A stretch of DNA of 64,000 nucleotides from a phage: the sequence record PZ445443.1, one strand, 5' to 3'. The notes under the pieces were generated by a model. It saw only the letters and a list, made by a program, of their open reading frames with translations, was not told the DNA's origin and did no database searches. Each line of letters begins with the position of its first letter. The stretch's first letter is position 1. The position numbers and the translations under genes are program-made. Below are positions 7,570-7,920 of the stretch, one piece after another.

Positions 7570-7920
7570 ATGAATACTTCCATCACTATGACCACCGAAG
7601 AAAAAGCCCTGCAGATCGCCGCTCTGAAAAAACAGATTGCAGAACTGGAAGACAAGATCGACAATTTTGAAATCGACGAAGACAAATACGATGATAAATA
7701 TGATGAATGGTTGGACGAGATCCACGGCGAAATTATGATCGGTTGTATCTCTTTCCTCCCTTCACGTATCCTTAGGGAGCTGGATCCTATCGCTTACCGT
7801 TGCGGCTTTAGCGATTATATTGATAGCCTAGATATTGAAGATGACGAAGAATACCAGGAATTGCAGACAGAGCTTGAAGAAGCAAAAGAAGAGCTTGCAG
7901 AACTGGAAGAAAACGAGTAA
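7570..7920 (+). CDS. highly acidic coiled-coil protein
   Basis: ATG with AAAGGAG RBS; D/E-rich 116 aa. Confidence 0.6.
   Translation: MNTSITMTTEEKALQIAALKKQIAELEDKIDNFEIDEDKYDDKYDEWLDEIHGEIMIGCISFLPSRILRELDPIAYRCGFSDYIDSLDIEDDEEYQELQTELEEAKEELAELEENE

Follow-up and report, generated by a model that had tools for sequence, protein, structure and literature searches.

Early phage genes of unassigned function harbour many host-takeover and anti-defence mechanisms, and the gene at positions 7570–7920 of the window (the whole 64,000-nucleotide stretch of record PZ445443.1 analysed here) raises the question of which kind its product serves. A preliminary description presented the product as a 116-residue acidic coiled-coil protein, rich in Asp and Glu throughout and expressed early from a consensus promoter, and as a candidate DNA mimic acting on restriction enzymes or other DNA-binding defence proteins. 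The window comes from a Vequintavirus (rV5-like) phage of Escherichia coli, and the 2 kb around the gene are 92–95% identical to more than 100 rV5-like genomes. The coding sequence, on the plus strand and starting with ATG, agrees exactly with the description in position and length: the 13.6-kDa protein contains 37 Asp and Glu residues (31.9%) and 10 Lys and Arg residues, with a net charge of −27 and a pI of 4.05. It falls into PHROG 9294, and its orthologue in phage vB_Eco_Alma is PHAGEALMA_166, annotated as a ‘coil containing protein’. The dN/dS ratio of the gene is 0.06–0.09 (about 0.07), a sign of strong purifying selection; because it is also conserved across the genus, in more than 100 rV5-like genomes, the ORF is a real gene.

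Among the 91 ATG-started plus-strand ORFs of at least 60 residues in the window, this one tops the acidity ranking. The runner-up, with 21.7% Asp and Glu, lies at 9426–10049 (207 residues, pI 4.47), has its own near-consensus promoter (9341–9368) and a leader hairpin, has no match in Pfam and encodes another uncharacterised acidic protein, which is probably early.

The AlphaFold2 model of the protein (pLDDT 88.7) consists of helices at residues 9–31 and 37–52, a β-hairpin at 55–62, and helices at 64–71, 73–86 and 93–114. Residues 37–86 (7678–7827, plus strand) define the conserved head domain, in which a helix is followed by the β-hairpin and two further helices; predicted alone (residues 36–92), the head adopts the same fold, likewise with a pLDDT of 88.7. 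The head is flanked by two heptad helices, which pair within one chain in the predicted structure, modelled as a monomer. The N-terminal helix (residues 9–31; 7594–7662, plus strand) is amphipathic and of mixed charge (net −2), and its hydrophobic a and d positions, 12, 16, 19, 23, 26, 30 and 33, are kept throughout the protein family described below. The C-terminal helix (residues 93–114; 7846–7911, plus strand) carries a net charge of −10, and its exposed positions are almost always Asp or Glu family-wide.

Analysed as a linear distribution along the sequence, net charge is −8 in residues 32–52, only −2 in residues 53–86, −4 in residues 87–92 and −10 in the C-terminal helix. The modelled protein is thus an acidic stalk with acidic linkers around a folded head. 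Two earlier statements have to be narrowed: the protein is acidic overall, not uniformly, and the coiled-coil assignment holds for the terminal helices with their heptad character, not for the middle, which is a compact domain with a β-hairpin. As judged from the sequence, the charge pattern of the C-terminal helix is of the kind expected in a polyanionic decoy or DNA mimic. A 29-nucleotide intragenic DNA repeat, D12 (7627–7655 and 7885–7913, 86% identical), encodes KKQIAELEDK in the N-terminal helix and KEELAELEEN in the C-terminal helix; the arms of the stalk may share ancestry by duplication or may have been homogenised by recombination.

A fold search with the predicted structure gave no match to any solved structure, and PDB sequences, searched first with the protein alone as query and also with a profile of 124 sequences, gave nothing below an E value of 0.07; a resemblance to prefoldin-β in these searches was insignificant and was discarded. 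On the model, the head has a fold unlike any solved structure.

The gene is preceded by a σ70-type promoter, TTGACA-N16-TATAAT (7489–7516, plus strand), which matches the consensus at all 12 positions. It is one of only two perfect matches in 64 kb, where five sites with at most one mismatch were observed and 0.54 expected. The two close Vequintavirus relatives that were aligned (L004 and Alma) both retain TTGACA and the leader, and both differ in the −10 hexamer, which is TATACT in L004 and another variant in Alma. Between the −10 box and the Shine–Dalgarno sequence lies a short G+C-rich leader hairpin, GGGAA-AAC-TTCCC (7531–7545, plus strand); the Shine–Dalgarno sequence itself, read as AAGGAG (7556–7561, plus strand), stands 8 nucleotides before the ATG and is conserved in all five aligned loci. 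Near-identical G+C-rich hairpins of the GCGGGAAAACTTCCCGC type, belonging to repeat families D3 and D9, occur at about 6857–6874, 7531–7545, 9379–9397 and about 13483–13500, between strong σ70-like promoters and the Shine–Dalgarno sequences of several genes. They were flagged as terminator-like on the minus strand in a scan; they could stabilise the 5′ end of the mRNA, act as sites of regulation or terminate antisense transcription.

Two copies of a further repeat, D1, bracket the acidic-protein gene. The upstream copy (7285–7347, plus strand) is intergenic and 63 nucleotides long, with a promoter-like TTGACT-N18-TAAACT site at 7306–7335; the downstream copy (7918–7980, plus strand) doubles as a promoter-like element before the next gene (8010–8255). 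With the copies at 8252–8314 and 11639–11701, the family has four members in the first 20 kb, built of TTATTTTTAG, the hairpin ATGGCCTTGACTCCAGGGCCAT, which the promoter-like site overlaps, and then CAATAAAGTAAAC. A 35-nucleotide core is identical at 7300–7334 and 7933–7967, where no match is expected by chance, and a D1-like element stands directly upstream of the orthologous gene in two distant loci (L005 and L006, about 50% protein identity). D1 may serve as a promoter module, either regulated or specific to the phage; alternatively, it may be a hotspot of recombination on either side of gene cassettes. Elsewhere in the window, three direct repeats of about 47 nucleotides, spaced 65–74 nucleotides apart, occupy a non-coding stretch at 5220–5405 that includes an A/T-rich stem-loop (5361–5398); they are iteron-like and could form an origin or a regulatory array. 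Seven tRNA calls (Arg-TCT, Tyr, Ser-TGA, Thr, Met, Pro) cluster at 60743–61555; one of the seven, 99 nucleotides long (61212–61310), has an unassigned four-base anticodon (atcc).

The protein belongs to a large, catalogued, uncharacterised and essentially phage-specific family. Its match to PHROG 9294 (E = 4.8e-49) covers residues 5–116, and the head region (residues 41–104) also matches PHROGs 9396 and 37123. The initial word-indexed search yielded mostly near-identical Vequintavirus proteins and a few at 35–55% identity, from which a profile was built. Against 1.84 billion cluster representatives this profile gave 3,490 matches at E ≤ 1e-3, the weakest of which may be compositional, and 1,159 clusters of 50% identity at E ≤ 1e-10; the top matches are typically 100–135 residues long. 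In 156 representatives the median content of Asp and Glu is 31% and the median net charge −30, and most contain DPxA[YF].

The family is defined by the head signature Y..LDE ... PS..L.E.DP.AYR.G..DY.D, all residues of which are present here between residues 44 and 85 (Y44, L48, D49, E50, S65, L68, D72, P73, A75, Y76, R77, C78, G79, D82, Y83 and D85). Conserved family-wide are Y44, L48, D49, S65, L68, D72, P73, A75, Y76, C78, G79, D82, Y83 and D85, with position 77 mostly Arg, and PSxxLxExDPxAYRxGxxDYxD is near-invariant. About 24 alignment positions are at least 60% acidic in the family; exposed positions of the C-terminal helix are 60–72% acidic and less than 10% basic, and the N-terminal helix is mixed. 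The head occurs alone, with an acidic tail, with a coiled-coil stalk (the architecture of the protein studied here), in tandem, or fused to Cys-rich motifs or to the Kyano_Gp96 domain. Head-only homologues of 56–75 residues are common in viral-contig loci and are only moderately acidic (20–29% Asp and Glu); gp4 of Proteus phage 309 and gp5 of Providencia phage PS3 are also of the head-only type. Named members include PHAGEALMA_166 of vB_Eco_Alma, bas59_0104 of EduardKellenberger, gp86 of PAK_P3 and Stuart_5 of Providencia phage PS3; a search of the window for a second member besides the gene at 7570–7920 found none. In a separate observation, the C-terminal 30 or so residues of P0043, a 76-residue protein on a 942-nucleotide Logan contig, match the C terminus of the acidic protein, and its N-terminal portion is similar to a minus-strand ORF of the window (6123–6365). 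Such a chimeric product points to a variant formed by deletion or rearrangement, or to a chimera created in assembly.

The family lacks a named function, a model in Pfam or NCBIfam and a solved structure. Scans of Pfam, NCBIfam and PADLOC returned only sub-threshold coiled-coil noise (GvpG, FlxA and SMC-like models), and the names ‘gas vesicle protein GvpG’, ‘Zn-ribbon protein’ and ‘SbcCD ATPase’ given to homologues in source records are probably artefacts of the same noise. Searches of the literature on the motif, on Vequintavirus DNA mimics and anti-defence genes and on PAK_P3 gp86 found no functional study. That no member has an annotated function and that the many weak coiled-coil matches reflect composition only would suit a chance or non-functional ORF, or low-complexity acidic filler. 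We give that reading almost no credence: the gene is present in more than 100 genomes, the family spans about 1,000 clusters, and the gene combines a dN/dS of about 0.07 with a confident fold and its own promoter and Shine–Dalgarno sequence. Conservation and purifying selection effectively refute it.

The head is found in 209 records of GenBank phages. Its carriers are Vequintavirus, Stephanstirmvirinae, Vibrio myoviruses, Pseudomonas Nankokuvirus and related Pseudomonas myoviruses of about 88 kb, together with Autographiviridae of Proteus, Providencia, Pseudomonas and Pelagibacter, and phages of Gordonia and Microbacterium. It also occurs on viral contigs of T4-like size, and the hosts span Proteobacteria, Actinobacteria and Pelagibacter. 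The same kind of pattern scan located 69 loci in IMG/VR viral contigs and 5 in 185,579 prokaryotic species genomes (one genome per species), all 5 of them on MAG contigs. Among 72,556 plasmids (PLSDB), tblastn found no true plasmid carrier; the sole match, CP057073.1, is a phage genome deposited as a plasmid, a 137.6-kb rV5-like sequence filed as a non-mobilisable E. coli ‘plasmid’. Record labels are anomalous in another case too. Seventeen GenBank records labelled as Campylobacter jejuni phages (for example, MG065635.1) closely match this E. coli Vequintavirus region, the two Campylobacter-labelled records listed being 92–93.5% identical to it; the labels could reflect a carrier state, contamination or mislabelling.

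Early expression, which had first been read from the promoter, gains indirect support from a distant homologue and from where the gene lies in T7-like phages. PAK_P3 gp86 belongs to the family (hhalign probability 96.9%) and lies within the early region gp74–gp112 defined by RNA-seq (PMC4933390); its late/early log2 fold change in the RNA-seq data is −2.31 (adjusted P = 6.8e-6). In four T7-like phages of the Autographiviridae, Providencia phage PS3, Proteus phage 309, Pseudomonas phage Lepni01 and Pelagibacter phage HTVC048P, whose membership is backed by hhalign probabilities of 97.7–97.9%, the gene is placed 1.8–3.1 kb in from the left end and precedes the genes for the phage RNA polymerase or primase; in PS3, primase and helicase genes follow it immediately. 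Because of the gp86 RNA-seq data and this gene position, early expression of the family is well supported, and the acidic protein of the window phage is probably early as well.

Clustering of the neighbourhoods of 52 non-redundant viral loci revealed no universal partner gene. GP88-family genes lie near the family gene in 9 of the 52 loci, and a Kyano_Gp96 (PF23790) gene stands immediately upstream in 3, on unrelated contigs (L009, 4962–5288; L021, 5697–5972; L023, 3089–3406). In P0078, Kyano_Gp96 is fused C-terminally to head plus stalk. A small family with the motif WSKTT[ST]RHIN adjoins the gene in five further loci; both this family and Kyano_Gp96 are absent from the window. The fusion partners, considered as a clue to function, yielded none. 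Since its neighbours are not conserved, the gene’s context gives no pointer to a target, and it does not discriminate between the candidate mechanisms.

It is possible, if on the doubtful side, that the protein is an accessory of the phage’s own machinery. In that case a protein of phage replication or transcription would be the binding partner of the head, or the head would work as an adaptor or a regulator when expression switches from early to middle, and the acidity would serve solubility or contact with the phage’s basic DNA-binding proteins, in the manner of the acidic tails of phage SSBs. Consistent with such a role, the gene behaves as a core gene within Vequintavirus under strong purifying selection, is adjacent or fused to the phage-specific Kyano_Gp96 domain in some loci, and often has replication-type genes nearby, including AAA ATPase and SprT-like genes besides the GP88 and PS3 cases above. 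Yet the family as a whole shares neither a phage-encoded neighbour nor any co-occurring gene, and the replication and transcription machineries of its carriers (T7-like, rV5-like, PAK_P3-like and contigs of T4-like size) are unrelated. In two T7-like phages, moreover, the gene precedes that for the phage RNA polymerase, a position more in keeping with host takeover.

The anti-restriction reading fares worse. A classical DNA mimic of the Ocr or ArdA kind, blocking restriction enzymes of type I or others, could well be a small, very acidic, helical protein behind a consensus host-type promoter, and its new fold would be compatible with mimicry, as known DNA mimics have no common fold. But phenotyping of the BASEL collection described Vequintavirinae as ‘exceptionally susceptible’ to restriction–modification (RM) systems and seemingly lacking ‘any effective protection’, in a panel of type I, II and III systems comprising EcoKI, EcoCFT_I, EcoRI, EcoRV, EcoCFT_II and EcoP1_I (PMC8594841), and the RM-sensitive BASEL Vequintavirinae, Bas59 among them (protein P0017), carry the gene. 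Proteus phage 309 encodes a family member and, separately, an annotated ocr gene, an Ocr homologue. Comparison with T7 Ocr by hhalign gave a probability of 0.3%, and neither Ocr nor ArdA appears among the best 25 of 36 Pfam families matched at E ≤ 10. The gene is absent from conjugative plasmids. Neither a dN/dS of about 0.07 nor a head conserved so broadly is typical of arms-race genes, and the best-conserved part is the head, with its signature of hydrophobic residues, Pro, Gly and Arg, rather than the acidic helices. The protein is probably not an anti-restriction protein, its action as an Ocr- or ArdA-type inhibitor being very unlikely, and in practice the gene should carry no anti-restriction annotation. 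What survives of the proposed DNA mimicry is its general part: the protein is small, very acidic and probably early, and strong negative charge, the mark of the DNA-mimic class, is conserved family-wide.

The best explanation, which we favour tentatively on the combined analysis, is that the protein is a polyanionic early decoy directed at a conserved nucleic-acid-binding protein of the host. The gene is most likely transcribed early by host RNA polymerase, and its small polyanionic product would present its head of about 50 residues at the tip of an antiparallel two-helix stalk, an arrangement belonging to this subfamily, with a C-terminal helix covered in Glu and Asp and with acidic linkers. 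The head would dock specifically on the partner, and the acidic stalk and linkers would occupy its basic nucleic-acid-binding surface, causing stoichiometric inhibition. Because the head is modelled confidently (pLDDT 88.7) and dN/dS is about 0.07, a specific, conserved interaction is indicated. A housekeeping handler of DNA or RNA, such as a nucleoid protein, RNA polymerase, an end-processing nuclease or an SMC-type complex, would be a likelier partner than a restriction enzyme, because the head is conserved across broad hosts and under strong purifying selection. The binding of a partner, the partner’s identity and the mimicry itself are what we infer.

A decoy of this kind agrees with the extreme and family-conserved acidity, the consensus host-type promoter, the early expression of PAK_P3 gp86, the position of the gene ahead of phage RNA polymerase or primase genes in T7-like phages and the near-confinement of the family to phages; T7 gp5.9 provides the precedent for an acidic coiled-coil mimic (PMC7617805). 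Against it, the modest acidity of head-only homologues means that the active surface may lie outside the acidic stalk, which would then be an accessory, neighbouring genes are not conserved, early expression is known from a distant homologue only, and acidity combined with coiled coil is also frequent in proteins that are not mimics.

Far from being an orphan, the gene represents a family of about 1,000 or more clusters of 50% identity, nearly confined to phages. It is conceivable, though we would not expect it, that the protein is the first known representative of a new, very widespread class of polyanionic decoys made by phages, in which a previously undescribed head of about 50 residues docks on a universally conserved bacterial protein that binds DNA or RNA, and acidic extensions block the nucleic-acid site. 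Were that so, rV5-like, PAK_P3-like, T7-like and marine phages would have a mechanism of host takeover in common. Identification of the partner would annotate thousands of phage genes together, and could also expose a weak point conserved among bacteria, or a nucleic-acid mimic of a new type.

Set beside known DNA mimics (Ocr, ArdA and gp5.9), the predicted structure has an unrelated fold. T7 Ocr (gp0.3) is nearly identical in length (117 and 116 residues), very acidic, largely helical and also behind host-type promoters; it differs in having no sequence, profile or fold similarity to the acidic protein, which is conserved in its folded head rather than in a charge pattern and whose carriers are sensitive to RM systems. 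By sequence, profile and fold alike, the protein is not an Ocr-family member. ArdA of conjugative plasmids and transposons is likewise acidic and expressed early after DNA entry, but no ArdA match stands among the best 25 of the 36 Pfam families matched by the acidic protein, and the plasmid search gave no plasmid-borne homologue, so that neither the sequence similarity nor the location on conjugative plasmids or transposons expected of an ArdA member is present.

T7 gp5.9 (PF25708; PHROG 9014) is an acidic coiled coil, a parallel dimer, that blocks the DNA-binding sites of RecBCD and MukBEF by phosphate-mimicking contacts, a mode termed ‘tailored mimicry’ (PMC7617805), and the decoy mechanism proposed here would be analogous to it in principle. 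Both proteins have an acidic heptad helix after a YIDSL-like motif (residues 81–114 here), and the resemblance of this segment to gp5.9, although weak, is consistent. A narrower form of the decoy reading would make the protein a gp5.9- or Gam-like inhibitor of RecBCD/AddAB or MukBEF/Wadjet whose coiled coil plugs the DNA channel, as lytic phages with linear genomes must protect their DNA ends and gp5.9 itself sets the precedent of an acidic coiled-coil mimic. We regard it as unlikely. The match to the gp5.9 family profile is not significant (PHROG 9014, E = 0.97), hhalign against the single gp5.9 sequence aligned 12 columns at 58% identity with a probability of 5%, and profile–profile comparison reached 38% in a shifted register and over the coiled coil only, and homology was accordingly judged compositional. 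Moreover, gp5.9, at 52 residues, has no counterpart of the head domain, and family members are also carried by phages whose hosts, Actinobacteria and Pelagibacter among them, process DNA ends with different enzymes. The relatives in PHROGs 9294, 9396 and 37123, by comparison, share with the acidic protein both the head signature and the acidity, and their genes, like this one, stand in small-gene arrays or precede the genes for the phage RNA polymerase or primase.
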